From positions 65,696 through 129,695 of the forward strand of contig PEAK01000002.1 of NCBI GenBank assembly GCA_002753515.1: a stretch of 64,000 nt of DNA, in the 5' to 3' direction. Each line of letters begins with the position of its first letter. The stretch's first letter is position 1. This stretch comes from Magnetococcales bacterium (GTDB taxonomy: Bacteria > Pseudomonadota > Magnetococcia > Magnetococcales > UBA8363). Under the pieces are notes generated by a model. That model searched no databases. It saw nothing but the letters and a program-made list of their open reading frames with translations, and had not been told where the DNA came from. Made by a program: the position numbers and the translations under genes. Of this stretch, positions 13,985 through 64,000 are shown piece after piece.

Positions 13985-13985
13985 T

Positions 13986-14924: not shown

Positions 14925-14978
14925 GGTTTTTCCTCCGCAATAGGGAAAAGATCGAGGTTCTCTGGAACGCCGTCCCAA

Positions 14979-16357: not shown

Positions 16358-16426
16358 GAGGCGCAACAGGATTGCGGATTTCTCGCCATTTGCAAAGGAA
16401 ACATTATTCGGATAAAGGAGGGTCCC

Positions 16427-47434: not shown

Positions 47435-47615
47435 AAATTGCCAAATTTGTCCCACATGTTGATCTTCGGATGTGGTTGTTTTCAAACTCTATGTCACGGT
47501 ACACAATGGTGACCGAAGACTGCACCATGGCCTTTGCCAGTTCAATTCGTTCCTGTCTCTGGCCAAGAAATACACCAAACAGTTCCGGTGATTCTGCCAA
47601 AGAAATAACTAATGT

Positions 47616-48512
47616 TTAAAGCCTGATCGTGCATTCCACCTCATTGCCGGAACCCAAGAACCGAACCTGGTCAAAACTGGCTTTGACGGCAATGGCGATG
47701 CCCCTGCCGTGCGTATCCAGCATCCGTTCGGGGTTGAAATCCAGGTACGGTTCGCTATCAAACCCAGTGCCGTCATCGCGAATACGGAAGTTTATTTCAT
47801 CTTCTTTGCGCGTGAAAAGAACCACCACATGCTTCTCCTGGTTCTCCGGCAATGCCATGCGCCGCTTAATTTCATTTTCAAGTTCATTTTTTCTATTGAA
47901 AATACCTTTTTCCTCATAGGTGATACCGAGATTGCCATGCTCCACGGCATTGATCAATATTTCTCGCAAACCGACCGCTGCTTTTTCTGGATTGGGACAG
48001 GTCAAGGATAACAATACCGACAATTGAAAGGCTTCGGACATGGTTTGGATGCGAAACCGAGCCTCTTCCATATGCATGGAGAGTGGACAACGGGTGACCT
48101 GGATTTGTCCATATAAGCATTGGTGGGCTGTTTTCCGGTTGATGGCGGCCTGGACAATGGCTAATAAAATATTGATATCCAAAGGTTTTGTAAGATAATA
48201 GAAAGCGCCGAGTGACAATCCCCTGGCAATGTCTTCGCTATTTTTGCGACTGGTGGTGAAAATGATGGGTATCCTTCGGGTAGTTTTTATGGCATGCAAT
48301 TGTTCGCATACTTCAAAACCGTTCATTCCCGGCATTTCCACATCCAGCAGGATGGTATCGACATCTTCGGTTTGCGCCGTTTGCAGGGCATCTTCACCGT
48401 TGGTAGCGACGAGGACCCGATAATCCTGGCTCAAGGCTTTTGCCAATACTTTGATATTGCCAGGGATATCATCAACGACCAATACCTTGTGTCGCTTTTC
48501 GTTTTCGGTCAT
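47616..48512 (-). CDS. Response-regulator receiver fused to an RsbW/SpoIIAB-type HATPase domain (no DHp/HisKA)
   Basis: REC: [14 protein letters not shown]...[15 protein letters not shown]...YLTKP. C-terminus: [13 protein letters not shown]...[11 protein letters not shown]...[12 protein letters not shown] overlap with the upstream kinase gene. Confidence 0.75.
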
Positions 48513-51361
48513 TTCTTGCCACTTTCCTTATGCAATTTGAGCTGTTTTGTGATGGTTTCGAGGAAAACGAGCGCACCATTGAAATCGACTCTTTCTAGTT
48601 TTTCCGCCAAGGCATCTGTATTTTTCAACAATTCGTCATCGCCGCAAGCCACGAGGTGTGGTCGGAGTTCTTCAAACACTTCCAATGATTCAAAATAATG
48701 CCCTTCGATCAACCGCCCCAGTTCGCGCACCAAGGGCAGAACCTCAGATAAATTCAAAGGGGCTTTTTCAGGGGGCGGTAGGGTTGCGGCAAATTGTTCA
48801 TCCGCTTGTTTCAAAGCTCCGATGGCGTGTATCACTTCGTTCAAGGCTTCTTCAAAATGGATCAATAATTCTCCGTTAAAGTGGATATTTTCCCGTAGTC
48901 CCTGCTCCAAAAGGGAGGAGGCTTCAAACAGGCGTGTTGCTGACATATTGCCCGCTATCCCGCGCACACTATGGGCCAGTTGTGCGGAAGTCTTGATATC
49001 GTCTTTTCTTTTTCCCGCCAAGGTCATACGAATTTCCCGGGCGACATGGGCGTAATCACGGTGGAATTCGTAGAGCAGGGAGCGCAGTAACCGGCGGTCA
49101 CCGTTCAGACGTTCCAGGCAATTGGCCAGATCGATGCCAGCGAGAAGTGTCGGCAAAGGTGGTCCCTCATCCTGAGCTTTCTTTCCCGCAGGCACTTGTA
49201 ACGTGATTCCCAGTCCCTCCCGCTTGCGGATCCACTGGCATAGTTTGTCGTAAAAGATTGTTTTTTCCACGGGCTTGGCAACATGGTCATTCATCCCGGC
49301 ATTCAGGCATTTTTCCCGGTCACCCGCCATGGAGTGGGCTGTCATGGCGATGATTGGTAATTCCAATAATCCCAGTTTGTTGCGAATCTGTTGCGCCGCT
49401 TCAAAACCGTCCATTCTGGGCATTTGGACATCCATGAGTACCAGATCCAATTCAACGCCCAACTCCTGGACCCTTTGCACAGCCTCCATGCCATCCCACG
49501 CTGTTTCTACGAGTATTCCGACGGATTCCAGAAATCCTTCCGCCACTTGCCGATTGATGGCATTGTCCTCCACGAGAAGTATCCTGGCCCCGCCGATGCG
49601 CTTGGCGATTGCCGCCAGATCGGAAAAATCGTCCGATTGTCGGCAGGCTTTGGCAACCGATCGGCCAAATACATTCATGATGGCGTCGAACAACAAGGAG
49701 CAATTGACCGGTTTGGATATCACTCCATCGACTTCGAACACATCCAACTGATCCTTGATCTCCTCCTCACGACCATAAGGGACCATGAGCAAGAATTTGG
49801 GAGGCGCTTTATTTGTTTCCGTGGCCTTGATGTGCATGGCGGCATCCAGACCATTCATCCCGGGCATCACCCAATCCACCAGGATTAACTGGTAGGGATT
49901 TCCCTGTTCTTTGGCTTGAGCCACCATGGTTTGGGCGACCTCTCCCGAGATGGCACCACTGGCTGTGAAGCCGAACATGGTCAAGGTATTGATGAAAGCC
50001 CGGCGTGCCGTATCGTTATCATCCACGACCAACACCCGCAGGAGCTGCATGTCATCGGGTGTGATCATATCGACCATTTCAGTGCCAAGGCGGCGTTGCA
50101 AAAGGGCGGTGAAATGGAACACGCTGCCCTGTCCCGGTTTGGACGCCACCCAGATCTTGCCCCCCATCATTTCGACCAATTTGAGGCAGATTGACAAACC
50201 CAATCCGGTACCGCCAAATTTGCGCGTGGTGGAGCTGTCGGCTTGGGAGAAAGGTTGGAACAACCTGGCGATTTGCTCGTCGTCCATGCCGATTCCGGTA
50301 TCGCGAATGATGAATTCCAACTCGCAATCGTTCGCCGATTCCCTGAGGGTTTTGACCTGGATTTCAATTTCCCCCTTTCGGGTAAATTTCAAGGCATTGC
50401 TGACAAAGTTCATCAATACCTGTTCCAGGCGCAGGGGATCGCCGAACAATTCATAACGGCATTCATCCGACATGCACATCACCAATTCCAGTTGTTTTTC
50501 GGTGACTTGTGCCTGAAACATGTCGGATAGGTGATCGAAGATATCCCTGACCAGGAAGTGCGACATCTCCAGTTCCAATTTGCCCGCCTCAATCTTGGAA
50601 AAGTCGAGGATATCATTGATAATACGCAAGAGTGATCGGGAGGAATTGGTAATTTTGGTTAAATAGTCGCGCAGGCGCGGCGACATGTCGGTCTGCATCG
50701 CCAGGTTGGAAAAACCGATGATGGCATTCATGGGGGTGCGGATTTCATGGCTCATGTTGGCCAAGAACTGCCCTTTGGCCCGGTTGGCCACTTCTTCATC
50801 CGCTTTGGCTTTTTCCAGTTCGATGAGGTATTGGCGTGTGGTCTCCTCGGCCCGGATCCGCTTGGTGATTTCAATTTCCAGATCCCGGTTGATACTCCTG
50901 AGTTCCAATTCCATTTTTTTGCGTCGGGCCGTTTCCTCTTCCAGGACTTGGACGTAGCGTTCCTGTTCCAGGTGCTTTTGATGCAATTTTAAAAATATTT
51001 TAACCTTTGAAAGCAAAACGGCATTGTTGACGGGCTTTTGGATGAAATCTACCGCTCCCAGTTGATATCCCATGATCCGCTTGTCTTCATCGGAGTGGGC
51101 CGCCGTTACGAAAATGATGGGTAAATCTTTCGTCCGTTCCGCACCATACAAGGCTTCCGCCACTTCAAAACCGTTCATCTCCGGCATGTTGACATCGAGC
51201 AGAATCATGGCGAACTCATGATCCATGCACAACGTCAACACTTCAATTCCCGAAGTCGCTTCGATGATGTCGGTATCCAGGCGTTCCAGGATTCTCCGCA
51301 TGGCAACCAAGTTGGCGGGGAGGTCATCGACGATCAGTATCTTTGGCCGCATATCACTCAT
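48509..51361 (-). CDS. Hybrid histidine kinase: REC - coiled coil - HisKA - HATPase - REC-like - REC - Hpt - C-terminal helical tail
   Basis: [12 protein letters not shown]...[13 protein letters not shown]; [18 protein letters not shown]; DTGIGM...GGTGLGLSI; [12 protein letters not shown]...[11 protein letters not shown]; [12 protein letters not shown]...[10 protein letters not shown]; Hpt [11 protein letters not shown]. Confidence 0.85.
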
Positions 51362-51941
51362 GCTGGAAATTTCCCAATTGCTTCAAGGTGCGTGCAATGG
51401 CATTCAAAGGAAGTACTTGATCTGCCGCTCCATGGGCGATGGCACATCGGGGCATGAACGGGGCTTCGGCGTCTTGGGGGTCTTGAACCAGTGTCTTTCC
51501 GCCGCGTTGCCGAATTTTTTGCAATCCTGCCGTCCCATCCCGACTGGCACCGGTCAATAATACCCCTATAAGACCCGTCTGGTAAACATCGGACGCCGTT
51601 TCAAACAAAACATCGATTGCCGGACGGGAATGGTGTACGGCGGCATCGATGGAGAGAGCGAGGGTGAAATCGGGTTCCACCAGGAGGTGATAGCCCGGGG
51701 GGGCGAAGAGGATGTGACCCGATTGGACGGGTTCCTTGTCCATGGCTTCACGTACCGGCAGACGGCAATGCAGGGCCAATAAAGAGCAACCTCGGGGGCC
51801 TGAACCTTGGGCTGGCTGGTGCTGGACCACCAGTATGGGAACCGGGAATCCTTCGGGAAATACCGGGAAAAGGGTACGCAATGCCAGGAATCCCCCTGCC
51901 GATGCGCCGATGACAATAGCCCGGGGTCGGGGGATGGTCAT
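51354..51941 (-). CDS. cheB: CheB-type protein-glutamate methylesterase, catalytic domain only (no receiver domain)
   Basis: 195 aa. [10 protein letters not shown] (Ser nucleophile context), ILVVQHQ (His) and LLTGASRDG (Asp). No N-terminal REC. ATGA overlap with cheR and an 8-nt overlap with the downstream kinase. Confidence 0.8.
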
Positions 51942-52771
51942 GCCCCCACCTTTTTTTGGTAAATGCGCTGTTCCCTGGAAATCGGGGTGAAACGGTGTTC
52001 CACAGCGGTGAAAGACAAGGATTCATGGCTCCCCAGGCACAAAACACCCCCGGAAACCAAACTTTTCTCAAAAAGGTGCAGGACTCGATTGGTTAATTCC
52101 TTGTTGAAATAGATCATGACATTCCGGCAAAAAATCAAATGGGTCTCGGAAAAAACATGATCAGTGGCCAAATTGTGTGCGGCAAAGACGATATTTTCCT
52201 TCAACCCGGAGGGTATGCGTGCCAAATCGTATTTGGAATGATAATAATCAGCCAAAGAGTGTTGACCTCCGCCATTCAGGTAGCTTTGTGATGATTCCAG
52301 CATGCTGCTCAGGTTATAAATACCTTCCTTGGCGTGCTGCAAAGATTGACCGTTGATATCGGTGGCAAAAATGCGAACCCGCTCGTACAATCCCTCTTCG
52401 CTGAGCAGAATGGCCAGGGAATAGACCTCTTCTCCCGTTGCACAACCGGCATGCCAGATGGTGATGAAGGGATAGGTTGCCAGCAAGGGTATCACCTGTT
52501 TGCGCAATGCCAGATAAAACAGGGGATCGCGAAAAAATTCGGTTACGGTCACCGATAAGGCTGTGACGAGGCGGTCCAAAAATTGGCGATCATGAATGAC
52601 TTTGGGGATGGCTGCGGAAAGAGGGGAGATACCGCATTCCGCCAAACATTGAAGCATGCGACGCTTCAAGGAGGAGTGGGCATATTGACGAAAATCATAA
52701 CCATAGCGTAGATATATGGTTTCCAACAGGAGACGCATCTCTAAATTTTCAATCTCAGCTTCCGAATCCAT
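51938..52771 (-). CDS. cheR: CheR-type protein-glutamate O-methyltransferase
   Basis: N-terminal helical domain (LLLETIYLRYGYDFRQYA...SLKRR), TEFFRDPLFY, and the SAM-binding IWHAGCATGEEVYSLAILL...RIFATDIN. ATG at 52771 overlaps the upstream gene by 17 nt. Confidence 0.85.
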   Translation of the reverse strand: MDSEAEIENLEMRLLLETIYLRYGYDFRQYAHSSLKRRMLQCLAECGISPLSAAIPKVIHDRQFLDRLVTALSVTVTEFFRDPLFYLALRKQVIPLLATYPFITIWHAGCATGEEVYSLAILLSEEGLYERVRIFATDINGQSLQHAKEGIYNLSSMLESSQSYLNGGGQHSLADYYHSKYDLARIPSGLKENIVFAAHNLATDHVFSETHLIFCRNVMIYFNKELTNRVLHLFEKSLVSGGVLCLGSHESLSFTAVEHRFTPISREQRIYQKKVGA

Positions 52772-55064
52772 GGACCTGAACCAACAAAGTAGCAAGTTTA
52801 TCGAGCAGCAAAGCCATATCCACAGGCTTTGTCAAATAATCATTCGCCCCCGCCGCCATGGCTTGGCGCCGATCGTCTTCCATGGCCTTGGCGGTCAGGG
52901 CTATGACCGGTAATAAAGCCCATTGCGGATTTTTCCGCAGGCGCCGTATCGTCTCGTAGCCATCCATTACCGGCATCATCACATCCATGATGACGCAGTT
53001 GATAGATGGGAATTTCTCCAGAGACTCCAAAGCTTTGACCCCATTGGCGGCCATCAGGGTCTTAAGGTGATGCCCTTCCAGTTCCCGGGTCATGGCGTAC
53101 AGGTTGCGCACATCATCGTCCACCAACAACACGGTTTTATCGTGCAGGTTGGGGTAGCTTTCCCGGGTTGCCGCCACCATGGTTTTTGCCGATGATGCCT
53201 GCTCCGGCGGTACTACGGAAGCCTCTCTCAGTAATAAGGCCATCTCTTTGAGTAGTCGCGCTGGGGAATGTTCCCCCTTGACGACAATGGCATCGGTAAA
53301 TTTTTTCAATCGGTCGTATTCGTCCCGTGACAACTCCTGACCGGAGTAAATGATCGTGGGCGGTTTTACAAAGGTGGATCCCTGTGCCATCTGTTCCAGC
53401 CAGACCAGTCCATGGATATCAGGAAGGTTTAAATCGAGGATCATACAATCGAATGGCTGCTCCTGGAGCAAAGCCAATGCTTGGATACCTGTGGCAGCCC
53501 GGGTCACCTGCACCGGGTAGGGTTGCAATAAATGTGTCATGGCTGCACATGCTTTGGCATCGTCCTCAATCAGCAGTATCGTGCAAGGGGTGGTTGCGCT
53601 GTATCTCGATGGTAATGTCATGATCAAGGTTTTTGAAGCGTCTTCGATCTTGGGACTGGAGGTCGCCACTGGTGTTGTCGAAGTGATCGTCAATGCTGTA
53701 GATGTGTTTGTCAGGGAGGGGTTTTTCCCTTCCGACCCTTTGACGTGGGTCAACAACGCATGAATCATCCTGGAAAGATCGGTGCCCGATTCATAAATCA
53801 TGGCTGCATCGGTCAGTTGGCGCTCATTCAGGTTGTGGTATGCGTTGTCAGCAAAACTTTTGGCCAGGATCAACAGGGTGTTCAAGGGGGTTCGCAAATT
53901 ATGGGACAGTTCGGCCAAAACTTCGGACTTTGTATCGATGGCCCATTGCAACTCTTTGGCACGAATCTGTAACGCCTCCTGAGTATTGATGAGTTCCCGA
54001 TTTGTTCTCTCCACCTCGTGCTTTTGCTCCGCAACCAAACAGGCATGACTCTCCATGGCTTCGTTGGCGACACGCAACTCTTCCTTTTGCTCCTTGAGTT
54101 GTGCCTGCGCCATTTCCAAATCAATTTTTTGCTCCTGCAACCTGGCGTTGGATAGACGCAAGGCGCGACTTGTGGTGCGCAGGGATTGGCTTTGTTCGCG
54201 CAATTTGCTCAGGGTTTTTTCAGTATGGTCATGGGCCTGGGCCGCACTGATGGCCATGGCGACACTTTCGCTGACGCTGGTTAGAAAAGAGAGATGTGTC
54301 TCGGTTATGCCGGTCAACGTACCGAGTTCCAGGACCGCCTTGACCTTGTCATGCAGCATAAATGGAAAAATCAGCAACATCTCGGGTACGGCCCCCCCCA
54401 AGCCCGATTGGACTTCAATATGTCCAGAAGGTACCCGGGTGATGAGGAGATACCGTTTTTCCAGAAGCACTTGCCCCACCAAGCCTTCACCGGGGACGAA
54501 CATATGGCCGGGTGATTTGCGAACCTGATAGGCATAACTACCCAACATGCGGGCACTCCCCTCATCTCCCAGCACATAAAAAGCTCCCATGGCCGCTTCC
54601 AGGTGTTGGGAAAAAAAGGCAACCATGGCGCTGCTGAGGGCGGGTAAATCGCTTTTTATCCCGAAAAGTTTATGGAGTTTGGCCGTACCTTCCTGGTGCC
54701 ACAAGGTTTGCGATTGAATCGTTTGCTGTAGCTGTAAATGTTGGGCCAGGGTATTCACCTCCTGGCCCAGGCGACCGATCACTCCCCGATTCTGGTAGGC
54801 CATACGAACCGTCATGTCCCCTGCAGCCATTTGGGTGATCACCCGTTCCAGTTGTTGCAGAGACGCATTTTGGCGACGCTCGTACAGCCAAACCAGAGCT
54901 CCTCCCAAGGCCATCAGCGACAACGCGATCATCACCCGGGCAAGCGTTTCCTTTGTAAGCGGCAAGAATACCCGGGACAGGTGAACCAGCAACAAAATGG
55001 CTGCTGCCCCGAGAAGTACGGAAACATGGGTGCCTCTTTTATGGGGTTGGGTGCCGATGGTCAT
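52755..55064 (-). CDS. TM - HAMP - GAF - coiled coil - HisKA(DHp) - REC - REC protein lacking a catalytic ATPase (HATPase_c) domain
   Basis: Two N-terminal hydrophobic segments. HAMP (ITQMAAGDMTVRM...IGRLGQEVNTLAQHL), then a GAF-like region. Glu/Gln-rich coiled coil (LKEQKEELRVANEAMES). H-box LAELSHNLRTPLNTL. After ~60 aa a Ser/Thr-rich linker leads straight into REC1 (ILLIEDDAKA...LDLNLPDIHG) and REC2 (VLLVDDDVRN...MDVMMPVMDG). No N, G1 or G2 boxes seen. Confidence 0.75.
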   Translation of the reverse strand: MTIGTQPHKRGTHVSVLLGAAAILLLVHLSRVFLPLTKETLARVMIALSLMALGGALVWLYERRQNASLQQLERVITQMAAGDMTVRMAYQNRGVIGRLGQEVNTLAQHLQLQQTIQSQTLWHQEGTAKLHKLFGIKSDLPALSSAMVAFFSQHLEAAMGAFYVLGDEGSARMLGSYAYQVRKSPGHMFVPGEGLVGQVLLEKRYLLITRVPSGHIEVQSGLGGAVPEMLLIFPFMLHDKVKAVLELGTLTGITETHLSFLTSVSESVAMAISAAQAHDHTEKTLSKLREQSQSLRTTSRALRLSNARLQEQKIDLEMAQAQLKEQKEELRVANEAMESHACLVAEQKHEVERTNRELINTQEALQIRAKELQWAIDTKSEVLAELSHNLRTPLNTLLILAKSFADNAYHNLNERQLTDAAMIYESGTDLSRMIHALLTHVKGSEGKNPSLTNTSTALTITSTTPVATSSPKIEDASKTLIMTLPSRYSATTPCTILLIEDDAKACAAMTHLLQPYPVQVTRAATGIQALALLQEQPFDCMILDLNLPDIHGLVWLEQMAQGSTFVKPPTIIYSGQELSRDEYDRLKKFTDAIVVKGEHSPARLLKEMALLLREASVVPPEQASSAKTMVAATRESYPNLHDKTVLLVDDDVRNLYAMTRELEGHHLKTLMAANGVKALESLEKFPSINCVIMDVMMPVMDGYETIRRLRKNPQWALLPVIALTAKAMEDDRRQAMAAGANDYLTKPVDMALLLDKLATLLVQVHGFGS

Positions 55065-55067
55065 GGT

Positions 55068-58000
55068 TTACTGGTACAACCAGATTTGCAGCATCGCCAA
55101 GAGCTGGTTCATATCCACTGGTTTGGCCAAGAAATCGTTGGCACCGGCGCTGAGGCATTGTTTGCGATCTTCTTCCATCGCCTTGGCCGTGAGGGCGATG
55201 ATGGGTAGGTTTTGGTATCCGGGGTTTTGCCGAATGCGTCGCATGGCCTCAAAACCGTCCATCACCGGCATCATGATATCCATCAGTACGACATCGATTT
55301 CAGGGTGTCCAACCAGGACATCCAGGGCCTCTTTGCCGGTGCCGGCGGTGAACACCCGCAACTCCTTTCGCTCCAACATGCGTACCAAAACCCGTGTGTT
55401 ACGTACGTCATCATCAACGACCAGAATGGTTTTATCCTTGAAGACCTCCTTGGGATCGTGGAGTGCTGCGACCTTGTTGTCCGCCTCTGGGGAGAGATCC
55501 CGATTCACCCGGTGTAGGAACAACGTCACATCATCCGTTCGTTGAGGCGTTGATGCCAGTACTTTCTGGATATCCGCCTTGGAAACGGGTTTGCTCAATT
55601 GGCTTGTCGCCCCCTTGGCAATACCATCCATGCCGTGATCCGCCCCCGACAGGATGTGGACCGGAATAGCACTGGTTGCGGGATTGCTTTTCAGTCGCTC
55701 CAACACCGCCCAACCATCCATGACGGGCAAGCCGATGTCCAGAATGATGCCGCTGGGAATGTGATTCAGAGCAAGCTCCAATCCGCTCTGGCCATCGGTG
55801 GCCATAAGGGACTTGAAACCTTTTTCCCGGGCGATCTGCGCGACGAGGTTGGCAAACTGTGGATCATCCTCGATGATCAACATGACGCGCTCACCCGCCG
55901 TGATGTTTTGATGGGTGCCGGCCATTCCCTGTGGTATTGGCCGGGCAATGTTCGGCGTCGTTAGCGTCCGATGAGAAGGCGGTGCCGATGTTGCGATGGC
56001 AGGGGTATTGGCCTCAAGCCAGGGGAGCAGCAGGGTGAATACGCTGCCGACACCTTCACGACTGACCAGGTTGATTGTTCCACCTAAAAGCTGTGCCAGT
56101 TGCGTCGAGATCGTCAAACCCAAACCGGTACCACCAAACTTGCGACTGGTGGAACCATCCGCTTGCTGAAAGGCTTCAAAAATGGTGGCATGTTTTTCCG
56201 GAGGAATGCCGATTCCCGTATCGCTGACGCTGATGGCGACACCGGCAACCGGGATATTGTTTTGCGCATTCCCCGGTCGAAAGGTGTGGGGCAGGGGAGC
56301 GAATCCCAGGGTGACCCCTCCCTGCTGGGTGAATTTAAAGGCATTGGACAAAAGATTTTTGACAATGCGGGATACCTTTTCCCAATCGGTACACAAGGTT
56401 TTCGGACAATCGGCGGCGGGGGCGGCAATCTGAAAGGTCAACCCCTTTTTGCTGGCTACATGACGAAAATTTTGCTCCATGGCCAGGGCGAATTCGTCAA
56501 TGCTCATGGTTTCGACCAGGCAATCCATCCGTCCCGCTTCGATTTTGGCCAGGTCGAGGATTTCATTGATCAATCCCAATAATTCCTGGCCTGAATTGTG
56601 GATAATGGTGGCATCCTCCACCTGTTGCGGGGTCAGATTGCCATCGCCATTTTCGCAAAAATTGTTGGCGAGTATGAGCAAACTGTTGAGCGGTGTCCTG
56701 AGTTCGTGGGACATGTTGGAAAGAAATTGCGATTTGTAGCGGTTGGCTTGTTCCAGGTCGAAGGCCTTTTGTTCTAATTCTTTGCGAATGGTTTGGAGTG
56801 CCAAATTTTTCTTTTGGTCCGCCACATTTTGTTCCTCCAACTGTTGGGCATTGATGGCCAATGATTCGTTGGAGACCCGCAGTTCTTCCTGTTGTTGCAG
56901 CAACGTGGCTTCGGATGCTTGCAACTCCCGGGTTTTTTCTTGCAATTCCTGATTGGAACGTTTCATCTCGGAGCCAATTTTTTCCAATTCCTCGGCCTGC
57001 CTTTGCGAATGGGCCAACGCCTGTTGCAACAAGGTGCGCGAGTTGGCAGCCGCCACCGCCATGGCGATGCTGATGGCCTCTTGCGCCAGGAATTCCAAAT
57101 GGCGGTCCTGAAACGCGGCAAACGCCCCCAGCTCGACGATCGCTTCCACCTTGTCGTGGACCATGAAGGGAAAAAGCAGCAGATACCTTGGTTGACTCTC
57201 TCCCAATCCCGACTGGATGCGAAAATATTCCACGGGCAGGGGGTGAATGCGCATGGGGGCTTTGTTAACCAGACATTGTCCCACCAAACCTTCCCCGGGT
57301 TTGAAGGTCATGTTTTGCAGTCGTGTATCCAAGGACAAGGCGAAATGGCCAAAGAGCATGACCCCGCCATCGGATTGGATCACATAAAAGGCCCCTATCT
57401 GACAGTCGAGCCAGGAGGCCAGAAATGAGACGGTTTGTGCCGCCAACTCGCCCAACTCTTTCTCTCCGCGCAAACATCGATTCAATTCCGCCGCCCCTTG
57501 CTCCATCCATGACGTGCGCAGTTTCTGTTCGTGAACCGCGATGAGTGTTGCGGCCATTTTTTCGAAGGAGTGAACCAGGAGACCCACTTCATTACCGGGA
57601 GCGGCAATGGATTCCATACTCCAATCGCCTTCCTGAATTTTTTTCGACCATTGGGTCAGTCGTTGCACAGGGGTGACGATATGTCCGGTAACACGTCCCG
57701 CTACCAACAAAACCAAAACCGAGACCAGTATCAAAACGATAACCAATTGATTGCGTAACCGCAATGATGGGGCGAAAAACTCCTCGGCTTGCATCTCCGC
57801 GAACAAACCCCAGTGAACCCCGAGGTCTGCCAAGAAAGGCAAATCTTTATAGATTCCAAGAACCTCGTGGCCGTCGTAATCGATATAGGTTCCGTGGGTT
57901 AACGACATGGGATGGTTATCTGTCCGGGTTTTCTGCGAGGCATCCCGAATTTTGATCCGACTATCGGTTGCATCGCTGGGAGTAGTCGCTTGCAACCATT

Positions 58001-58925
58001 GGCGCGAAATCCAGGTGTCCACCTTGACTTCCGTGGCGACGGCCTGTTTCAAGACACGCGAAGGGGAACGCATGTTCAGGTCGGATCCCACCAGATAGGT
58101 TTCACCGGTTTCTCCCAATCCAACGTTGATTTCCATGAGTTGAAACAGGGGTGCCAATGATATTTCCAGGATTATGACTCCGGTTACCTGACCGTTTTCC
58201 CCCGACATGGGTCGGATGAGATAACCGGACAGGGTTGAAACACGACTGGGTAGCAAGTCGGAGAATACCGCCTTCTTTTTTTCCAGGGCTTGTTGGACCG
58301 CTTTTCCCAAGGGCGTTATTTTTTCGGCCCCCGCCAAAAGATCACTCCCCAAAAGTGGGTCGGGATGGCGTGAAAACAGCACTGTCCCACCCGGTTCCAT
58401 CAGGTAATAGTTTTTGTAGCCATGGGTTTCGACAAACTCGGCGATGTCATTGCCTTCCTTTTCCACCCGTTCGGCCCAGGAGAAACCTTTAACATACTCC
58501 TCAGATTTGAGGGTGCTGGCGCGCCATTCGTTACTGAGGTCATTGATGAAGCGTAAACGCGCCAGTGACATGGATTCCCGTTGTAAATGACGGAGTTGCT
58601 CGGTGAACAGCATTTCCAGTGCCGTGTATTTCAGTTCCACGGCGTTGGATAATTTTTGGCTGGCCTCGGTGCGAAACGCTTCGACGGATTTGGAATATCC
58701 TTGCCAACTGATAAAACCCAGCGGCAACAGGGACAATCCTAACAGCCATAGGAACACTGTCCGTCCCAAACCGGAACGAAAGGGAATGAGAGCTGAGGGG
58801 AATGGTGAATTGCGCTTAGACAAGGAGGGTCTCTTCCCGCTCAAAGGGATGATCGGATGGTACACCGTGCAACGATTGCCAGTGGGGATGTTCAGCAAGC
58901 GCTTTCTGGACGAATTCGTACTCAA
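55068..58925 (-). CDS. Transmembrane sensor hybrid histidine kinase: ~330-aa periplasmic (Cache-like?) domain - HAMP - GAF - coiled coil - HisKA - HATPase - REC - REC
   Basis: TM1 VFLWLLGLSLLPLGFI and TM2 LVIVLILVSVLVLLVAG. Coiled coil LLQQQEELRVSNESL. FLSNMSHELRTPLNSL; DTGIGI...GGTGLGLTIS; REC1 VMLIIEDDPQF...LDIGLPVMDG; REC2 ILVVDDDVRN...MDIMMPVMDG. The annotated ATG (58925) overlaps the upstream gene by 110 nt, so the true start may be further downstream (TTG or GTG candidates). Confidence 0.8.
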   Translation of the reverse strand: MSTNSSRKRLLNIPTGNRCTVYHPIIPLSGKRPSLSKRNSPFPSALIPFRSGLGRTVFLWLLGLSLLPLGFISWQGYSKSVEAFRTEASQKLSNAVELKYTALEMLFTEQLRHLQRESMSLARLRFINDLSNEWRASTLKSEEYVKGFSWAERVEKEGNDIAEFVETHGYKNYYLMEPGGTVLFSRHPDPLLGSDLLAGAEKITPLGKAVQQALEKKKAVFSDLLPSRVSTLSGYLIRPMSGENGQVTGVIILEISLAPLFQLMEINVGLGETGETYLVGSDLNMRSPSRVLKQAVATEVKVDTWISRQWLQATTPSDATDSRIKIRDASQKTRTDNHPMSLTHGTYIDYDGHEVLGIYKDLPFLADLGVHWGLFAEMQAEEFFAPSLRLRNQLVIVLILVSVLVLLVAGRVTGHIVTPVQRLTQWSKKIQEGDWSMESIAAPGNEVGLLVHSFEKMAATLIAVHEQKLRTSWMEQGAAELNRCLRGEKELGELAAQTVSFLASWLDCQIGAFYVIQSDGGVMLFGHFALSLDTRLQNMTFKPGEGLVGQCLVNKAPMRIHPLPVEYFRIQSGLGESQPRYLLLFPFMVHDKVEAIVELGAFAAFQDRHLEFLAQEAISIAMAVAAANSRTLLQQALAHSQRQAEELEKIGSEMKRSNQELQEKTRELQASEATLLQQQEELRVSNESLAINAQQLEEQNVADQKKNLALQTIRKELEQKAFDLEQANRYKSQFLSNMSHELRTPLNSLLILANNFCENGDGNLTPQQVEDATIIHNSGQELLGLINEILDLAKIEAGRMDCLVETMSIDEFALAMEQNFRHVASKKGLTFQIAAPAADCPKTLCTDWEKVSRIVKNLLSNAFKFTQQGGVTLGFAPLPHTFRPGNAQNNIPVAGVAISVSDTGIGIPPEKHATIFEAFQQADGSTSRKFGGTGLGLTISTQLAQLLGGTINLVSREGVGSVFTLLLPWLEANTPAIATSAPPSHRTLTTPNIARPIPQGMAGTHQNITAGERVMLIIEDDPQFANLVAQIAREKGFKSLMATDGQSGLELALNHIPSGIILDIGLPVMDGWAVLERLKSNPATSAIPVHILSGADHGMDGIAKGATSQLSKPVSKADIQKVLASTPQRTDDVTLFLHRVNRDLSPEADNKVAALHDPKEVFKDKTILVVDDDVRNTRVLVRMLERKELRVFTAGTGKEALDVLVGHPEIDVVLMDIMMPVMDGFEAMRRIRQNPGYQNLPIIALTAKAMEEDRKQCLSAGANDFLAKPVDMNQLLAMLQIWLYQ

Positions 58926-60048
58926 CGAGATCCTTCGCTACAAAATCGGCAGTAATCTTGGTCAGAAAAGTGTGATCGTCCGAAACCAGGGTCTGATTCA
59001 TCATCTCGACAATCATGCGTGTTGCTGAAGGATAGGGATAGGGATTGAAGTCGATGCGCTGATTGTGCCAAGCCTCCTGGTGGCGGATAGCGACCGGATC
59101 GGAATAATCCTTGGGATTGTAGTGGCTGATCGCCCTTTGAACCGTGTCGGCGGAGACGGGGAGGTAGCCCTTGCCTTCTTTGGCGAGCAACCGCGCTGTC
59201 TCTTCCCTGTGGTCTGAGGCATGGAGGGCGCCCTTGACCACGGCATTCATGATTTTTTGCGTCCATTGTGGTTTTTGCCGGGTTGCAGATTCGTGCATGC
59301 AAACCACACAGCATGGGTGATCCCGCCAGATATCCCCGGTAAAACGAAAAACTTTCCCTGCCCCCCCCATTTCCCCCATGGCGGCGAAAGGTTCGGCAAC
59401 GACATAGCCATCTGTGGTTCCATTGGCCAATGCCTTGACCATCAACGGGGGGGGGATGACCTTTAAGGCGCAGACCCCTGCGGCCACTTTTTCCCCCTGG
59501 TCCACCATGGGTTGGATGCCCACCTTGCGCAACCCGGCCTGCAACACGATATTGTGCATGGAATACCAGTATGGAATGGCCATGCGTTTTCCGGAAAAAT
59601 CGCCGAATTCCCTGATAGTACTCTCATTGCCGACGACGATGGCCGATCCGTTTGTATGAGCCCAGGAGACGATTTTGACCGGAAAGGCATTGTTGTAGCG
59701 CATCCACACCGGGATGGGTTTCAGGAGATGCACCAGATTGAAATGACCTTCGGCAAAGCCGCGTACCAAGGTATCCCAGCCTTTGAATGAGACAGGCGGT
59801 GCCACTTCAAGACCTTGTTCCGCGAAAAATCCCAGGGCGTGTGCCACCAACAGGGGTGTTGCATCGGTAATGGGAAGGTAGGCGATGCGGACAACCTCAT
59901 CGTCCGTTGCCCTGGTCAGTCGGGGTAGCCCGGCAAGCATCGTGGCCAATCCCCCTCTGGCCATCCAGTCCAAAACTCGGCGTCGCGTGATTCCGGGAGA
60001 GTTTTCCAGTAGCGATTTTGATTCCCATGGTATCATCGCCGTCTCCAA
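58816..60048 (-). CDS. Tat-signal periplasmic solute-binding protein, NMT1/NrtA-like (nitrate/sulfonate/bicarbonate ABC-type SBP fold), no cognate permease or ATPase
   Basis: Twin-arginine motif TRRRVLDWMARGGLATMLAG. RIAYLPITDATPLLVAHALGFFAEQGLEV...WDTLVRGFAEGHFNLVHLL resembles NrtA/NasS-type binding proteins. Confidence 0.65.
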   Translation of the reverse strand: METAMIPWESKSLLENSPGITRRRVLDWMARGGLATMLAGLPRLTRATDDEVVRIAYLPITDATPLLVAHALGFFAEQGLEVAPPVSFKGWDTLVRGFAEGHFNLVHLLKPIPVWMRYNNAFPVKIVSWAHTNGSAIVVGNESTIREFGDFSGKRMAIPYWYSMHNIVLQAGLRKVGIQPMVDQGEKVAAGVCALKVIPPPLMVKALANGTTDGYVVAEPFAAMGEMGGAGKVFRFTGDIWRDHPCCVVCMHESATRQKPQWTQKIMNAVVKGALHASDHREETARLLAKEGKGYLPVSADTVQRAISHYNPKDYSDPVAIRHQEAWHNQRIDFNPYPYPSATRMIVEMMNQTLVSDDHTFLTKITADFVAKDLVEYEFVQKALAEHPHWQSLHGVPSDHPFEREETLLV

Positions 60049-60062
60049 ATCTTTACAAAATC

Positions 60063-60977
60063 TTAGTGAAAAATCGACATGACCCGATTGCGACCGCCCT
60101 CTTTGGCGGCGTAAAGCATTTTGTCCGCTGATTCCAATAACAATTGTGGCGAAGCGCTACGAATCGGGAGCATGGAGGCACACCCGAGGCTGAGGGTGAC
60201 GTGGTCGGCTATCTGGGAGAGGGGATGGGGAATGTGCAACGATACGACTGTTTGGCGAAATTTTTCTGCCATGGCTGTCGCACCGACATGTTCCACGTGT
60301 GGAAGAACTGCGACAAACTCTTCACCACCGTATCTGGCCAACAAATCGGTGGAACGATGCATGGTGTCTTGCAAAGAGTGCGCAACACGGCGCAAACAGT
60401 CATCCCCAGCCGCATGTCCCAAACTGTCATTGTAAGTTTTAAAATAGTCGATATCCATGAGAATCAGCGATAGGGGAGATCCTCCCCGAACCGAGCGGTT
60501 CCATTCCCGCTGGAGAAACTGATCAAAATAGCGGCGATTGGCGATATTAGTCAGGGTATCATTCAAAGAGAGCTGCTCCAACTGATCGCGCTGCCGCTTG
60601 GCTGCGACATGATTGCGAACACGTGCCAATAGAATGGGGGGACTCAACGGTTTGGTAATATAATCGGAGGCTCCCAACGCCAATCCTTTGGTTTGATCCG
60701 CCTCTTCGTTCAGACCCGTGACAAACAGGACACAAATACCGGCAGTTTCATGTTGCGCTTTTAGTGTGGCACACACCTCGAATCCATCCATTTCCGGCAT
60801 GGTGACATCCAACAGGACGAGGTCAATTTTCTCCTGGGAGATGAGCCTCAGGGCATCTTTGCCGTTGGTGGCCATGCGTACCTGAAATTCCTCCCGCAAA
60901 ATGACTGCCAGGGCCTTAATGTTCCCGGGAACGTCATCAACAATCAATATTCTAGCCCTTTCATCCGCAGCATTCAT
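60063..60977 (-). CDS. Response-regulator diguanylate cyclase (REC-GGDEF, WspR/PleD-like)
   Basis: REC: ILIVDDVPGNIKA...LLDVTMPEMDGFEV...YITKP. GGDEF domain with active site RYGGEEF and RSTD (RxxD I-site) five residues upstream. Confidence 0.9.
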   Translation of the reverse strand: MNAADERARILIVDDVPGNIKALAVILREEFQVRMATNGKDALRLISQEKIDLVLLDVTMPEMDGFEVCATLKAQHETAGICVLFVTGLNEEADQTKGLALGASDYITKPLSPPILLARVRNHVAAKRQRDQLEQLSLNDTLTNIANRRYFDQFLQREWNRSVRGGSPLSLILMDIDYFKTYNDSLGHAAGDDCLRRVAHSLQDTMHRSTDLLARYGGEEFVAVLPHVEHVGATAMAEKFRQTVVSLHIPHPLSQIADHVTLSLGCASMLPIRSASPQLLLESADKMLYAAKEGGRNRVMSIFH

Positions 60978-63676
60978 GACTTATCGTTCTCCAAATCCAT
61001 GTTCAATGCCTTGGCTAAGTCAGAGAGAGTAGCCGAAGCCGCAGAAAAATCGATCCGATCAATCTGCTCTTCCAACTGTTCCATCGCTTCCTGGACACCC
61101 TTCTTCCCAATCATCATATGGGGTTTGAGGGCATCAAAAGTATCCTGAGTTTCCACGGCCCCCAAGCCTATTTGTGCATACAGTGTTTGCAGCAGGGGGG
61201 ATACAACGGCTTTGTTGAACGTTTTTGCCACCTCTGGTACGCCAAGTGAATTTCCTTTTGTCTTCTCCCACTCACGTTGCAGTCGCGAGATGGTTTCCAA
61301 AACCTCGGACATGGCTTCCTCGAAAGAATCCATGCCGCTTGGCATGTGATCCTGCGATCCGGCGATTGCTTTTTCCAAGGTCAGTGCGGCGTTGTAGAGG
61401 CGCTGGGCGGCAATGTTACCCGCAATTCCCTTGATGGTGTGAAGCAGACGGGCTGCTGCCAGGATCCTGTCCTCCTGCTCGCTCTGCAATCCATCACGAA
61501 TTTGTCCGGCTGACTGGGCATAATTTTTATGAAACTCAGTGAGCAGGGAGCGATAAAGCCGGTGGTTACCGGAAAGGCGTTCCATGGCGTCCTGCCAATC
61601 GAGGCCAGGCAAGCTTTGCGGAAAATCCAACCCATCGTTCCTTGGCGTCTCTGTTTTCCCGGGAGGGATCACCATCCCCAATCCCTCACGGGGGATGATT
61701 CTTTTGACCAGGGTACTGTAAAGTTGCCTCCTGTCAATGGGCTTGGTGATATGATCATCCATTCCAGCCTGCAAACTTTTTTGCCGGTCACCCGCCATGG
61801 CATGCGCTGTCATGGCGACAATGGGGAGGGTCTCTTTTCCTGGCAATTCACGGATACAACGCGTTGCCCGGTAGCCATCCATGACCGGCATCTGGATGTC
61901 CATCAGGACGATATCATACATGTTGTCGGTCACTTTGCTGACCGCCTCCATCCCGTCCTGGGCCGTATCCGTCACACAGCCCACTTCCTGTAACAATTCC
62001 AGGGCCACTTGGCGGTTGATGGCATTGTCTTCGACCAGCAATACCCGCGCACCGCCAATTTTTGCCATGACGTCGGCAGTATGGATGGTTTTCTTGCTGC
62101 GGCGAATTGTTTTGGTGGCTTGCCGTCCGAAGGTGTTCATGATTTTATCGAACAGGATCGAACAATTGACCGGCTTGGGGAGATAGTCATTCACGCCAAC
62201 CGCTCTTCCCTGGCTCCGCAACTGTTCTTCACGGTCGTAGGGGCCCAGGAGCAGCGTTTGATAAGGTGCCCTGGGTGGAATGTGTTCTTTGAGGTGCTGC
62301 GCCGTTTGAATGCCGTCCATCTCTGGCATGAGCCAATCCAGCAATACCAATTGGAACGGGGCGTTTTCGGCAATGGCTTGTTGAAAAGCGGCGACAGCCT
62401 CTTTTCCGGAACCGACGACCGTCGGGGCGAAACCAAACATGGCGAGAACTTTTTCCATGGCCCGGCGTGCCGTTGCATTGTCATCAACCACCAGGACTTT
62501 GAGTCGTTCCATTTCATCGGGAATGCTCAAATCCTTGTCCATGTCGCCAATAATGCGATCAAAGCCAATGGTGAAACGGAACAGGCTACCGCGACCCGGG
62601 GTGGAGGTGACGCCGATGGTCCCGCCCATCAACGCCACCAATTTTTTGCTGATGGAAAGACCCAGACCGGTACCTCCATAGCGGCGGGTGACCGAGGAGT
62701 CCGCCTGGGAAAATGCTTGAAAAAGCATTTCCAACTCGCTTTCCGACATGCCGATGCCGGTATCACGAACGCTGAATTGCAGATGAACCCGGGTTGGCGA
62801 TTCCTGGAGGGTGGTGACCTGGACCTCGATTTCACCCTCTTCGGTAAACTTTAAGGCATTGCCAACCAAGTTCATGAGAATTTGTTCCAAGCGCAGCAAG
62901 TCGCCGATCAGTTCGTAGCGGCACTCTTCCGAATAACACAGGATCAGCTCAATATGTTTCTCGGTGGTTTGGATGCGAAACATGTCGGCCAGATGATCAA
63001 AGGCGTCACGTAACAGGAATGGTGCCTGTTCCAACTCCAGTTTTCCCGCGTCTATCTTGGAAAAATCAAGAACATCATTGATAATACGTAATAATGATTG
63101 TGATGAATGGGAAATTTTGCCCAAATAATCGCGTACCTTGGGCGGCAGTTCCATCCGCAGGGCCAAATCGGACAAACCGATGATGGCATTCATCGGCGTG
63201 CGAATTTCATGACTCATGTTGGCGATGAATTCACTCTTATATTGATTGATCTCCTGCAATTGAGCGGTTATGCGTTGCAATTCCTCCCGTTGCCGTTTGA
63301 TCAATACTTGATTGTTGACCCGGGTCATGACCGCAAACGGATTGAAAGGCTTGGTGATATAATCGATGGCCCCGTGCGCCAATCCCAAGGCTTCATCATG
63401 GGCGCTGTCGCGGGCGGTCAGGAAAATGATGGCAATGTCCCGGGTTTCCTCCTTGGCTTTGAGCCGCATGCAGACGTCGAATCCGTTCAAATGCGGCATC
63501 TCAATGTCCAGGAGGAGTACATCGGGTTGGAATTGCGTGACCACCTCCAAAGCTTCCAACCCATCGGTAGCAATGGCAATTTCATACTCCACTGCCAACA
63601 TTTCCACCAACATTTTAATATTGCCGGGAGAATCTTCCGCGATGACGATTTTGGCTTTGGATGTCGTGGTCGACAT
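60974..63676 (-). CDS. Hybrid histidine kinase, paralog of 48509-51361: REC - coiled coil - HisKA - HATPase - REC-like - REC - Hpt - C-terminal helical tail
   Basis: KIVIAEDSPGNIKM...LLDIEMPHLNGFDV; [18 protein letters not shown]; DTGIGM...[10 protein letters not shown]; [12 protein letters not shown]...MDIQMPVMDG; Hpt LLHTIKGIAGN. Confidence 0.85.
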   Translation of the reverse strand: MSTTTSKAKIVIAEDSPGNIKMLVEMLAVEYEIAIATDGLEALEVVTQFQPDVLLLDIEMPHLNGFDVCMRLKAKEETRDIAIIFLTARDSAHDEALGLAHGAIDYITKPFNPFAVMTRVNNQVLIKRQREELQRITAQLQEINQYKSEFIANMSHEIRTPMNAIIGLSDLALRMELPPKVRDYLGKISHSSQSLLRIINDVLDFSKIDAGKLELEQAPFLLRDAFDHLADMFRIQTTEKHIELILCYSEECRYELIGDLLRLEQILMNLVGNALKFTEEGEIEVQVTTLQESPTRVHLQFSVRDTGIGMSESELEMLFQAFSQADSSVTRRYGGTGLGLSISKKLVALMGGTIGVTSTPGRGSLFRFTIGFDRIIGDMDKDLSIPDEMERLKVLVVDDNATARRAMEKVLAMFGFAPTVVGSGKEAVAAFQQAIAENAPFQLVLLDWLMPEMDGIQTAQHLKEHIPPRAPYQTLLLGPYDREEQLRSQGRAVGVNDYLPKPVNCSILFDKIMNTFGRQATKTIRRSKKTIHTADVMAKIGGARVLLVEDNAINRQVALELLQEVGCVTDTAQDGMEAVSKVTDNMYDIVLMDIQMPVMDGYRATRCIRELPGKETLPIVAMTAHAMAGDRQKSLQAGMDDHITKPIDRRQLYSTLVKRIIPREGLGMVIPPGKTETPRNDGLDFPQSLPGLDWQDAMERLSGNHRLYRSLLTEFHKNYAQSAGQIRDGLQSEQEDRILAAARLLHTIKGIAGNIAAQRLYNAALTLEKAIAGSQDHMPSGMDSFEEAMSEVLETISRLQREWEKTKGNSLGVPEVAKTFNKAVVSPLLQTLYAQIGLGAVETQDTFDALKPHMMIGKKGVQEAMEQLEEQIDRIDFSAASATLSDLAKALNMDLENDKS

Positions 63677-63685
63677 AAATTCACC

Positions 63686-64000
63686 CTACAGGTTCATGTG
63701 TAATTTTCCAGCCAGACCCCTCAAGGTAACCCGGGCAGCCTTGAAACCATAACGGTCCATTTCCTCCTGCAGTTGCTTGCATTCTTGTGTGAATCCCCCA
63801 CGCAGCAACAAAGGTTTGATCGCGTCAAAACTTACCACGGCATCCACCTTGGCCTGCTTCAGAAGGTCATCCAAATCCACCAGGGCGGTCCGTACCATTT
63901 CCAATTCCCCGATGGTCAAAGGAGCGACCACAGCCGTTTCCTCAACGCTGACCAATGGTTCCAGGGCAGAAACCGCAGCGACAACCTCCTGCATGTGTAA
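63686..64000 (-). CDS. 3' end of a gene continuing beyond the window; it encodes the same C-terminal helical tail found on the two hybrid kinases
   Basis: The frame stays open to position 64000. SFDAIKPLLLRGGFTQECKQLQEEMDRYGFKAARVTLRGLAGKLHMNL aligns with TFDALKPHMM...IDRIDFSAASATLSDLAKALNMDL and [10 protein letters not shown]...[22 protein letters not shown]. Confidence 0.6.
   Translation of the reverse strand, partial: LHMQEVVAAVSALEPLVSVEETAVVAPLTIGELEMVRTALVDLDDLLKQAKVDAVVSFDAIKPLLLRGGFTQECKQLQEEMDRYGFKAARVTLRGLAGKLHMNL

Follow-up and report, generated by a model that had tools for sequence, protein, structure and literature searches.

The 64,000-nucleotide (nt) stretch analysed here, referred to below as the window, is taken from contig PEAK01000002.1 of a Magnetococcales bacterium (assembly GCA_002753515.1) and ends in an array of ten successive minus-strand genes that, in the open reading frame (ORF) table, run from 47616 to the window edge at 64000. 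The array encodes four hybrid histidine kinases, a REC-GGDEF response regulator, a binding protein, an ATPase-less HAMP-GAF-DHp-REC-REC protein of 769 amino acids (aa), the methyltransferase CheR, a receiver-less CheB methylesterase and a REC-HATPase_c_2 protein. It is very probably an expanded Magnetococcales copy of a conserved four-gene signalling module, made up of a sensor hybrid kinase, CheR, a receiver-less CheB and then a REC-kinase or REC-GGDEF protein, that was recovered from at least 12 phyla. The reading favoured here, with modest confidence, is that CheR and CheB of this expanded copy act on pairs of glutamates in a conserved Glu-rich helix that precedes the phospho-accepting His of the kinase. 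This helix, together with the register described below, is a feature defined in the present analysis rather than taken from the literature, and is termed the zipper. The arrangement noticed in the original prediction, a CheR/CheB pair in a phosphorelay operon without a methyl-accepting chemotaxis protein (MCP), CheW or CheA, is not exceptional; the module is widespread and has already been named in Pseudomonas putida (cfcABCDE; PMC4951495). The module itself was therefore known from the Pseudomonas cfc/bms clusters, and what is added here is the cross-phylum linkage with zipper kinases and a set of defined residues.

The best homologues of the window CheB are all approximately 190-210 aa long and consist of the methylesterase domain alone. 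A scan with an alignment of these short CheBs, limited to one genome per species, returned 80 loci from Chloroflexota, Bacteroidota, Verrucomicrobiota, Cyanobacteria/Sericytochromatia, Nitrospirota, Acidobacteriota, Armatimonadota, Bdellovibrionota, Desulfobacterota, Myxococcota and Alpha-, Beta- and Gammaproteobacteria, with Stutzerimonas stutzeri, a Pseudomonas sp., Xanthomonas and Stenotrophomonas among the named members. Domains in these loci, and in the 80 loci of the converse scan below, were called with probes cut from the window proteins and with Pfam spot checks. CheR adjoins CheB in 76 of the 80 CheB-anchored loci, and a GAF or zipper hybrid kinase lies beside the pair in 48 of the 51 loci with at least 5 kb of sequence on both sides; in 43 of these 51 it is an adjoining GAF-HisKA-HATPase-REC(2-3) kinase of 1000-1450 aa, and in five more it is split or lies at a slightly greater distance. 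The gene after CheB encodes a REC-HisKA-HATPase protein in 29 loci (plus seven with an extra REC) and a REC-GGDEF protein in six, and in 12 Bacteroidota loci it is the big kinase itself. Caldimonas, an Anaerolineae metagenome-assembled genome (MAG) and Novosphingobium carry the module as a compact four-gene unit amid unrelated metabolic genes, as determined by Pfam. Compared with Pseudomonas, Xanthomonas, Flavobacterium and a cyanobacterium, the window proteins share 47-51% identity for CheR and 45-52% for CheB, and the 1285-aa kinase of the array shares 34-37% identity over approximately 800 aa with the CheR/CheB-linked kinases of the same four taxa. In one Sericytochromatia MAG (L031, 8985-11429) the C-terminus of the receiver-less CheB continues into a fused REC-PAS-kinase, so that two adjoining module genes are merged.

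The linkage is also found when the search begins from the kinase. A converse scan of metagenome contigs with only the zipper pattern L[QLK][QEA]QQEELR, derived from an alignment of five sequences, gave 80 loci; this set was selected on one motif copy, making the conservation of that copy partly circular and leaving the other copy and the CheB-anchored set unaffected. The motif-bearing ORF has a kinase domain in 79 and a GAF domain in 78 of the 80. Where at least 3 kb follow the kinase gene (n = 52), CheR was found in 44 loci and CheB in 37, and where 0.9-3 kb follow (n = 10), CheR was found in nine. REC-GGDEF is the commonest gene after CheB in this set (17 loci). In control sets, the motif was found in none of 240 other proteins, including 120 hybrid kinases related to the 900-aa kinase of the array, several of them with GAF domains, and within the same loci it is absent from 124 of 130 non-GAF kinases and present in at least one copy in 129 of 141 family kinases. 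The linkage of the CheR/CheB pair with zipper kinases is two-way, and the question of whether a CheR and receiver-less CheB pair recurs beside HAMP-GAF-HisKA-type kinases, which the original prediction had left to a neighbourhood survey, is answered by its recurrence in at least 12 phyla.

In the window the zipper occurs twice on the minus strand, between the GAF domain and the phospho-accepting His. That of the 1285-aa kinase occupies 56709..57053 ahead of the His740 codon (56706-56708), and that of the 769-aa protein occupies 53904..54248 ahead of the His388 codon (53901-53903). The distance from the end of GAF to this His is exactly 115 residues in both, and mostly approximately 100-115 residues in the family kinases. 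The motif that the original prediction had noticed in both HAMP-GAF proteins is indeed present, as QQEELRVSNESL at residue 678 of the 1285-aa kinase (56859-56894) and QKEELRVANEAM at residue 326 of the 769-aa protein (54054-54089), each starting 62 residues before the phospho-accepting His. Counted from the [EQ][EQAS]E[LM] core (679 to His740 and 327 to His388), both stand in a 61-residue register. An ungapped alignment on the H-box shows one or two copies of [Q]QEEL[RKQ]x[STA]NEELEE[QK] per kinase, giving a near-invariant family motif, QQEEL(R)x(S/T)NEELEE, in which the residues Q, Q, E, E, L, N, E, E and L are 88-100% conserved (n = 137 aligned sequences). When the 769-aa protein was used as the query, 133 of the 150 best cluster representatives had the motif, and the copy nearest to the His lies 61 residues away in 78 of 129 measured representatives and at 61 plus or minus a multiple of seven in the others.

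This spacing is that of a coiled coil, and the kinases have in common a predicted continuous helix of approximately 105-115 aa. A Leu recurs every seven residues with an Asn four later. Placing Leu at heptad position d puts Asn at a and assigns the Glu pairs to b/c and e/f, so that conservation extends beyond the core to the exposed face. The AlphaFold2 (AF2) model predicts residues 607-758 of the 1285-aa kinase as one unbroken helix that runs from the linker into DHp helix 1, with a per-residue confidence score (pLDDT) of 80-92. That the linker of approximately 110 aa might mimic an MCP-like hairpin or four-helix bundle was considered and ruled out by the 21- or 28-residue spacing of the repeats, the quantisation of the His distance in sevens and the single AF2 helix. 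The sensor domain ahead of the zipper varies between CHASE3, 4HB_MCP_1, dCache or none. In the Novosphingobium kinase of L172 (6092-9091), a CHASE3 domain and a transmembrane (TM) segment are followed directly by the zipper and GAF is absent, indicating that GAF is dispensable and the zipper is not.

Both enzymes look active, judging from their catalytic residues. In CheB, the triad S14/H41/D135 shows no variation among 31 homologues and lines up with the CheB catalytic domains 3sft and 1chd, and the SAM-binding motifs (SAM, S-adenosylmethionine) of CheR are conserved and align with 5ftw and 1af7. None of the approximately 125 CheBs in the 160 surveyed loci has an N-terminal receiver. NCBIfam holds no dedicated model for either protein, the window CheR scoring 87 bits against a cut-off of 435 and CheB 157 against 342. 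Two of the surveyed loci, L055 and L127, also encode CheB-CheR fusions, with runs such as EELKSTNEEVQSTNEELQSTNEELTTSKEEMQSMNEELQTVNSEL after the CheR/PAS part. When one of these fusions was used as a tblastn query against plasmids, 375 records were obtained, 253 of them covering at least 80% of the query, and in all four plasmid fusions that were fetched (Deinococcus, Nitrobacter, Nostoc and Azospirillum) the repeat comes straight after CheR, as two to four strict NEEL heptads inside a run of approximately six related heptads. These proteins, annotated as 'CheB/CheR fusion protein' (KEGG K13924), resemble the module in combining CheB and CheR with a non-MCP protein that bears consecutive xxNEELx(S/T) heptads. 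They differ in that the enzymes and the repeat form one polypeptide, followed by PAS and kinase modules, whereas in the window CheR and CheB are encoded by two genes that overlap by 4 nt and the repeat lies in the kinases between GAF and DHp. Because the fusions carry the repeat too, CheB and CheR are tied to NEEL-type heptads in two unrelated architectures. On the Deinococcus plasmid (L166, 1309-7922) the CheB-CheR-zipper fusion gene is flanked by two CheB genes of approximately 340 aa and an 'ATP-binding protein', and no MCP is annotated near it. The literature searched contained no functional study of CheB-CheR fusions.

The original prediction had proposed that the methylation pair may act directly on the two HAMP-GAF proteins. 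Synteny, exposed Glu pairs and the fusions make these the best partner candidates, and the kinase is likely to be the partner of CheR and CheB. The partner inference is considerably stronger than the motif alone would make it, because the synteny holds both ways, the exposed Glu pairs are near-invariant in a fixed register and the fusions carry a similar repeat. That the zipper glutamates are themselves the modified sites is plausible but a little short of an even chance. The part of the proposal that fared less well concerns their setting, a coiled coil unlike the MCP methylation consensus or bundle.

Receiver domains are one alternative substrate. CheR and CheB could act on the C-terminal RECs, two or three in number, that the kinase carries, or on the REC of the downstream REC-kinase or REC-GGDEF protein, in the way that CheR of Salmonella methylates the PhoP receiver domain at E8/D9 and E107/E108 (PMC8546571). 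Within the family the multi-REC tail is no less constant than the zipper, and the gene after CheB is nearly always headed by a REC. However, it is the NEEL repeat and not the REC tail that the CheB-CheR fusions have in common with the kinases, the exposed zipper residues are conserved far beyond what a coiled coil needs structurally, and RECs are ubiquitous, yet the enzymes are linked to this kinase family alone. Receiver domains are therefore considered an unlikely target.

Several observations weigh against the zipper as the substrate. The canonical MCP methylation consensus is small-small-x-x-[EQ]-[EQ]-x-x-small-small, and when the zipper motif was tried as an instance of it no fit was found in the aligned columns. 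The single helix and the whole-heptad repeat spacing imply a parallel two-stranded coiled coil, and the usual substrate of CheR and CheB is the antiparallel four-helix bundle of MCPs. MCPsignal has no match in the isolated zipper segments at E<=10, where Pfam yields just generic coiled-coil noise. The alignment behind the AF2 model contains just two sequences and the model is unreliable in the GAF part, and the upstream motif copy is degenerate in both window proteins, leaving one good copy in each. For approximately 15% of motif-bearing kinases the contig contains no CheR; in the eight exceptions without CheR, another kinase and a radical SAM enzyme, an integrase or CobT/CinA follow instead. 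In P. putida the crinkly phenotype persists when cfc genes other than cfcA are mutated, according to an unpublished remark of the authors (PMC4951495), making CheR and CheB at most modulators. Finally, no report was found in the literature searched of histidine kinase methylation by CheR, either proposed or tested, and none of the zipper.

The misfit to the MCP consensus would also be in keeping with a zipper that serves only for docking or dimerisation, or as a purely signal-transmitting helix, with the enzymes having a third substrate or a non-catalytic scaffold role; the heptad-locked His distance is equally expected of a purely mechanical helix. The conserved CheB triad and the CheR SAM motifs speak against a role as scaffold only, the invariant exposed Glu-Glu pairs present the chemistry on which CheR and CheB act, and the module has no other conserved partner gene. 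This explanation is accordingly judged improbable.

The lack of a chemosensory core was confirmed at several levels. As the original prediction had read from the ORFs, the ten array proteins contain no MCP signalling domain, CheW or CheA: profile searches with Pfam found no MCPsignal or CheW domain in them at E<=0.01, and no CheA layout or H-kinase_dim. Probes validated against Pfam agree, with neither an MCP nor a CheW detected among all ORFs of the 64-kb window; the window's ORFs outside the array were not screened with a CheA-specific probe. In the 80 CheB-anchored loci the MCP probe (filters off, E<=10) found an MCP in only two, each approximately 8-9 kb away, and one more was found in the 80 motif-anchored loci, giving three in 160 loci with flanks of up to 8-10 kb on each side. 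No CheW was detected in the 160 loci with the validated probe, and no CheA among 239 unassigned long ORFs, a set of ORFs of at least 480 aa not cut by contig ends, in which the HATPase profile gave seven hits that were all checked by Pfam.

Beyond coordinate 64000 the picture comes from relatives, which share 75-94% protein identity across the common genes. The same array is present in three assemblies of one close relative, where the gene at the window edge corresponds to that of a 1262-aa kinase and is preceded by another NMT1_2 binding-protein gene. The array therefore comprises at least twelve genes, as relatives add a hybrid kinase and an NMT1_2 binding protein upstream. The description of the array as a dense operon stands, whereas its extent of ten genes is an artefact of the window, since the array runs on upstream in the closest relatives. 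Farther upstream on the same strand, the relative encodes a Transposase_31 protein, a TP_methylase and one MCP. The original prediction had considered that an MCP, CheW and CheA set might lie just past 64000; judged in the relatives, there is one MCP (519 aa, 4HB_MCP-HAMP-MCPsignal) approximately 7 kb upstream in L003 and L004, and no CheW or CheA within 10 kb in the close relative's locus. These MCP, TP_methylase and Transposase_31/DUF4351 genes (L003, 1515-5057, and L004) precede the array with short gaps between them, and the stretch may represent a mobile-element boundary of the operon. In the more distant Magnetococcales locus L002, genes for a kinase, a GAF-REC-REC protein, CheR, CheB and a multi-REC kinase occur in the same order, with no MCP, CheW or CheA within 10 kb on either side.

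Magnetococcales encode many MCPs, the lone 519-aa MCP gene of L003 and L004 is on the same strand as the array, and the window's own upstream stretch is known from relatives alone, all of which would suit an ordinary adaptation pair for chemoreceptors encoded elsewhere whose position reflects co-regulation alone. Such a role is nevertheless very unlikely, given the near-absence of MCPs and the complete absence of CheW, and of CheA among the candidate long ORFs, from the surveyed flanks, the zipper-kinase linkage kept in both directions across at least 12 phyla, a CheB without the receiver through which CheA controls it and the exclusion of a chemotaxis role for the P. putida orthologues (PMC4951495).

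The system most similar to the array is the cfcABCDE cluster of P. putida KT2440, in which CfcR, a REC-GGDEF-EAL protein, depends for its diguanylate cyclase activity on the hybrid kinase CfcA, which has CHASE3 and GAF domains (PMC4951495; see also PMC6849547). CfcB and CfcC correspond to CheR3 and CheB3, and it is for these two proteins that involvement in chemotaxis was ruled out (PMC4951495). The same neighbourhood is present in P. brassicacearum (kinase 3082, CheR 3081, CheB 3080 and hybrid kinase 3079), and the P. alkylphenolica orthologue is BmsA (PMC8175716). The Pseudomonas-type clusters recovered here fit what has been published on cfcABCDE/bmsA. The array shares with the published clusters the order of a GAF hybrid kinase with a multi-REC tail, CheR, receiver-less CheB and a REC-headed kinase, as well as, with cfcABCDE, the tie to a REC-GGDEF diguanylate cyclase and the absence of MCP, CheW and CheA. 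Locus L061 of a Pseudomonas sp., used as a proxy for the KT2440 Cfc proteins, encodes a CHASE3-GAF-HisKA-HATPase-RECx3 kinase with zipper followed by CheR, CheB and a REC-kinase, as in Cfc, and its proteins share 49% (CheR), 52% (CheB) and 34% (kinase) identity with those of the window. Cfc-type features found in the window are the adjacency of kinase, CheR and CheB (the 1285-aa and 769-aa proteins, CheR and CheB), the REC-headed 950-aa kinase and the zipper register. The window differs in having dCache and an adjoining binding protein as the sensor instead of CHASE3, two C-terminal RECs instead of three, an added ATPase-less 769-aa paralogue and two or three additional Hpt-bearing hybrid kinases. 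Its REC-GGDEF protein has no EAL domain and is encoded inside the operon, whereas P. putida cfcR lies elsewhere, and its last gene encodes a REC-HATPase_c_2 protein. Reports on HmrABCX (Caulobacter), WelA (Sphingomonas), MiST 4.0, CheR-TPR and a P. syringae two-component system census were also consulted and concern other systems.

Resemblance to other systems is more partial. Like the Wsp pathway, the array combines a CheR/CheB pair with a phosphorelay, which in the array would end in a REC-GGDEF cyclase as it does in Wsp. Wsp retains an MCP (WspA), the CheW-like WspB and WspD, the CheA-like WspE and a receiver-bearing CheB, WspF, alongside WspC and WspR; the window has equivalents of only CheR, the CheB catalytic domain and REC-GGDEF, with no WspA, WspB/D, WspE or REC-CheB. 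In the chemoreceptors Tar and Tsr the methylation sites are Glu pairs that lie at seven-residue intervals along the exposed side of a long helix. Likeness to canonical chemosensory arrays accordingly extends to homologous CheR and CheB with intact active sites and to a candidate substrate whose exposed Glu-Glu pairs are spaced seven residues, as in Tar/Tsr. In contrast to those arrays, the window has no MCP signalling domain, a continuous helix rather than an antiparallel four-helix bundle, a motif that lacks the small-residue context, a receiver-less CheB and a HisKA kinase fused to the sensor. The Salmonella CheR-PhoP case is similar in that CheR modifies pairs of acidic residues in a two-component protein that is not a chemoreceptor, and different in its receiver-domain substrate, its chemotaxis CheR and the lack of dedicated genetic linkage (PMC8546571).

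The ORF coordinates reproduce the ten minus-strand genes and all the overlaps given in the original prediction. Overlaps of 4 nt occur at 60974-60977, 51938-51941 and 48509-48512, the CheB and 950-aa kinase genes overlap by 8 nt (51354-51361), and those of the 769-aa protein and CheR by 17 nt (52755-52771) given a CheR start at the ATG at 52771, the start annotated in relatives; the remaining gaps inside the array are 9, 14 and 3 nt. A weak terminator-like hairpin (47573..47590, minus strand) lies 26 nt past the last stop codon and is weak evidence, as such sites are no commoner in the region than in shuffled sequence. Promoter and terminator scans of the region both gave counts close to the shuffle expectation and were uninformative.

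All array genes are on the minus strand and are described in the order of transcription. The first (63686..64000) is the 3' end of a large upstream hybrid kinase gene that runs on past the window. Its 104-aa product had no match in a word-indexed search, and its identity with the relative's kinase emerged with tblastn, 84.6% over 104 aa at the C-terminus of the 1262-aa dCache/HAMP/PAS-HisKA-HATPase-REC-Hpt kinase of L003. The second gene (60974..63676) encodes a 900-aa cytoplasmic hybrid kinase, REC-HisKA-HATPase-REC-REC-Hpt by Pfam and without TM segments, which is 100% identical to a Magnetococcales MAG protein. It is followed by the 304-aa REC-GGDEF response regulator (60063..60977), with GGEEF at residue 217 and the I-site RSTD at 208, five residues ahead of GGEEF, and by an NMT1_2/SsuA-type periplasmic binding protein (58816..60048) that has a signal region with RRR and a likely ATG start at 60036. 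The 1285-aa sensor hybrid kinase (55068..58925), the CfcA-like core component, has by Pfam the order TM-dCache-TM-HAMP-GAF-zipper-HisKA-HATPase-REC-REC, with TM segments at 53-75 and 387-420 and a periplasmic dCache-like domain between them. Its ORF opens with TTG and overlaps the binding-protein gene by 110 nt; by homology to a 1248-aa orthologue, its true start is probably near 58823, 2 nt past the upstream stop. Next are the 769-aa paralogue (52755..55064), CheR with CheR_N and the SAM-binding domain (51938..52771, 277 aa from the ATG in an ORF that reaches 52795) and the 195-aa receiver-less CheB, CheB_methylest alone (51354..51941). The 950-aa hybrid kinase (48509..51361) is REC-HisKA-HATPase-REC-REC-(weak Hpt) by Pfam, and its REC-kinase head is the counterpart of the CfcD-like REC-HK gene that follows CheB in most family loci.

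The last array gene (47616..48512) encodes a 298-aa response regulator, REC-HATPase_c_2 by Pfam, with an RsbW-like kinase domain; this architecture recurs at the same place in L001 and L044. In L044, a few kb downstream of the module that ends, like that of the window, in REC-HATPase_c_2, there is an 881-aa protein (13975-16620) with cNMP_binding, Hpt and HATPase_c domains and no CheW-like or dimerisation domain.

The 769-aa protein has two N-terminal TM segments followed by HAMP-GAF-zipper-DHp(His388)-REC-REC. Approximately 55 residues separate its DHp from the first REC, a stretch in which an ATPase domain cannot fit. Among the 150 best cluster representatives of a library of 1.84 billion, this short form was found in two proteins (764 and 779 aa), the others being full kinases of 1030-1880 aa, and the ATPase-less form appears almost confined to this lineage.

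With respect to the gene order and domain content first read from the sequence, every domain call is supported by Pfam, with four corrections. The 900- and 950-aa kinases open with an additional N-terminal REC, the 1285-aa kinase has the periplasmic dCache-like domain between its two TM segments, the 769-aa protein has two TM segments and the DHp His388 (the absence of an ATPase domain is upheld), and what had been called a partial Hpt-tail protein is, judged from the relative, the C-terminal end of the large dCache/HAMP/PAS-HisKA-HATPase-REC-Hpt kinase. The GGDEF output, also part of the original prediction, is borne out by a REC-GGDEF protein with both GGEEF and an I-site; however, it is not a fixed component, although REC-GGDEF is often a neighbour across the module family. 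In the closest relative both the GGDEF domain and the binding-protein gene are lacking, and the gene for a 137-aa REC abuts that of the 1248-aa kinase directly (window 58816-60480 compared with L003 12700-13191).

From the domain content, the lack of MCP, CheW and CheA, the linkage and the intact catalytic residues, all of which are observed, we infer the following signal flow and chemistry. The 1285-aa kinase would sense a periplasmic signal through dCache, probably together with the adjoining binding protein, and autophosphorylate on His740. The phosphoryl group would enter a branched phosphorelay through the kinase's own RECs, the Hpt domains of the 900-aa, 950-aa and upstream kinases and the ATPase-less 769-aa paralogue, which could be phosphorylated only in trans or could serve as a heterodimer partner. 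Endpoints of the relay would be REC-GGDEF, producing cyclic di-GMP (c-di-GMP), REC-HATPase_c_2 and the REC head of the 950-aa kinase. CheR would methylate, in a SAM-dependent reaction, and CheB demethylate or deamidate the exposed Glu pairs of QQEEL...NEEL at the b/c positions, with a constitutively active CheB and CheR together fixing the methylation level of the zipper. Neutralisation of charge could then shift the stability or register of the coiled coil and with it the balance of kinase and phosphatase activity, setting gain or providing adaptation as in chemoreceptors. As CheB has no receiver domain, feedback would come through conformation-dependent access to the substrate and not through CheA-type phosphorylation; conformation-dependent access is part of how feedback arises in chemoreceptors.

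Elsewhere in the window, an ORF on the positive strand (5-12312) encodes a giant exoprotein, at least 3537 aa long, in which 18 YDG and 10 DUF5650 repeat stretches occur; its gene probably starts upstream of the window. It is followed by a ShlB/FhaC-type POTRA transporter gene, forming a two-partner secretion pair. A 605-aa ORF on the same strand (39889-41706) matches nothing in Pfam at E<=1e-5. A minus-strand gene (45429-47177) immediately downstream of the operon encodes a 582-aa DUF4365 and TPR protein in a low-GC patch (0.41 at 46-48 kb compared with approximately 0.53 around it) that may be a foreign insertion.

The residues to which the analysis points are E680/E681 and E686 of the 1285-aa kinase and E328/E329 and E334 of the 769-aa protein, and CfcA/CfcR of P. 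putida offers a tractable model. Should CheR and CheB prove not to act on the zipper, the locus would still be a clean example of a conserved module whose enzymes have no known substrate. If they do, a purpose would be explained for the 'orphan' CheR3/CheB3 of Pseudomonas and for the abundant CheB-CheR fusions, and it is tentatively suggested that a cross-phylum class of HisKA-type sensor kinases is itself methyl-accepting, with the fusions as its single-chain version. Two-component and c-di-GMP pathways would then gain chemoreceptor-style adaptation or memory without MCP, CheW or CheA, and adaptation by reversible carboxyl methylation, rather than being confined to chemoreceptors, would reach the histidine kinases that govern biofilm formation and c-di-GMP in many phyla.

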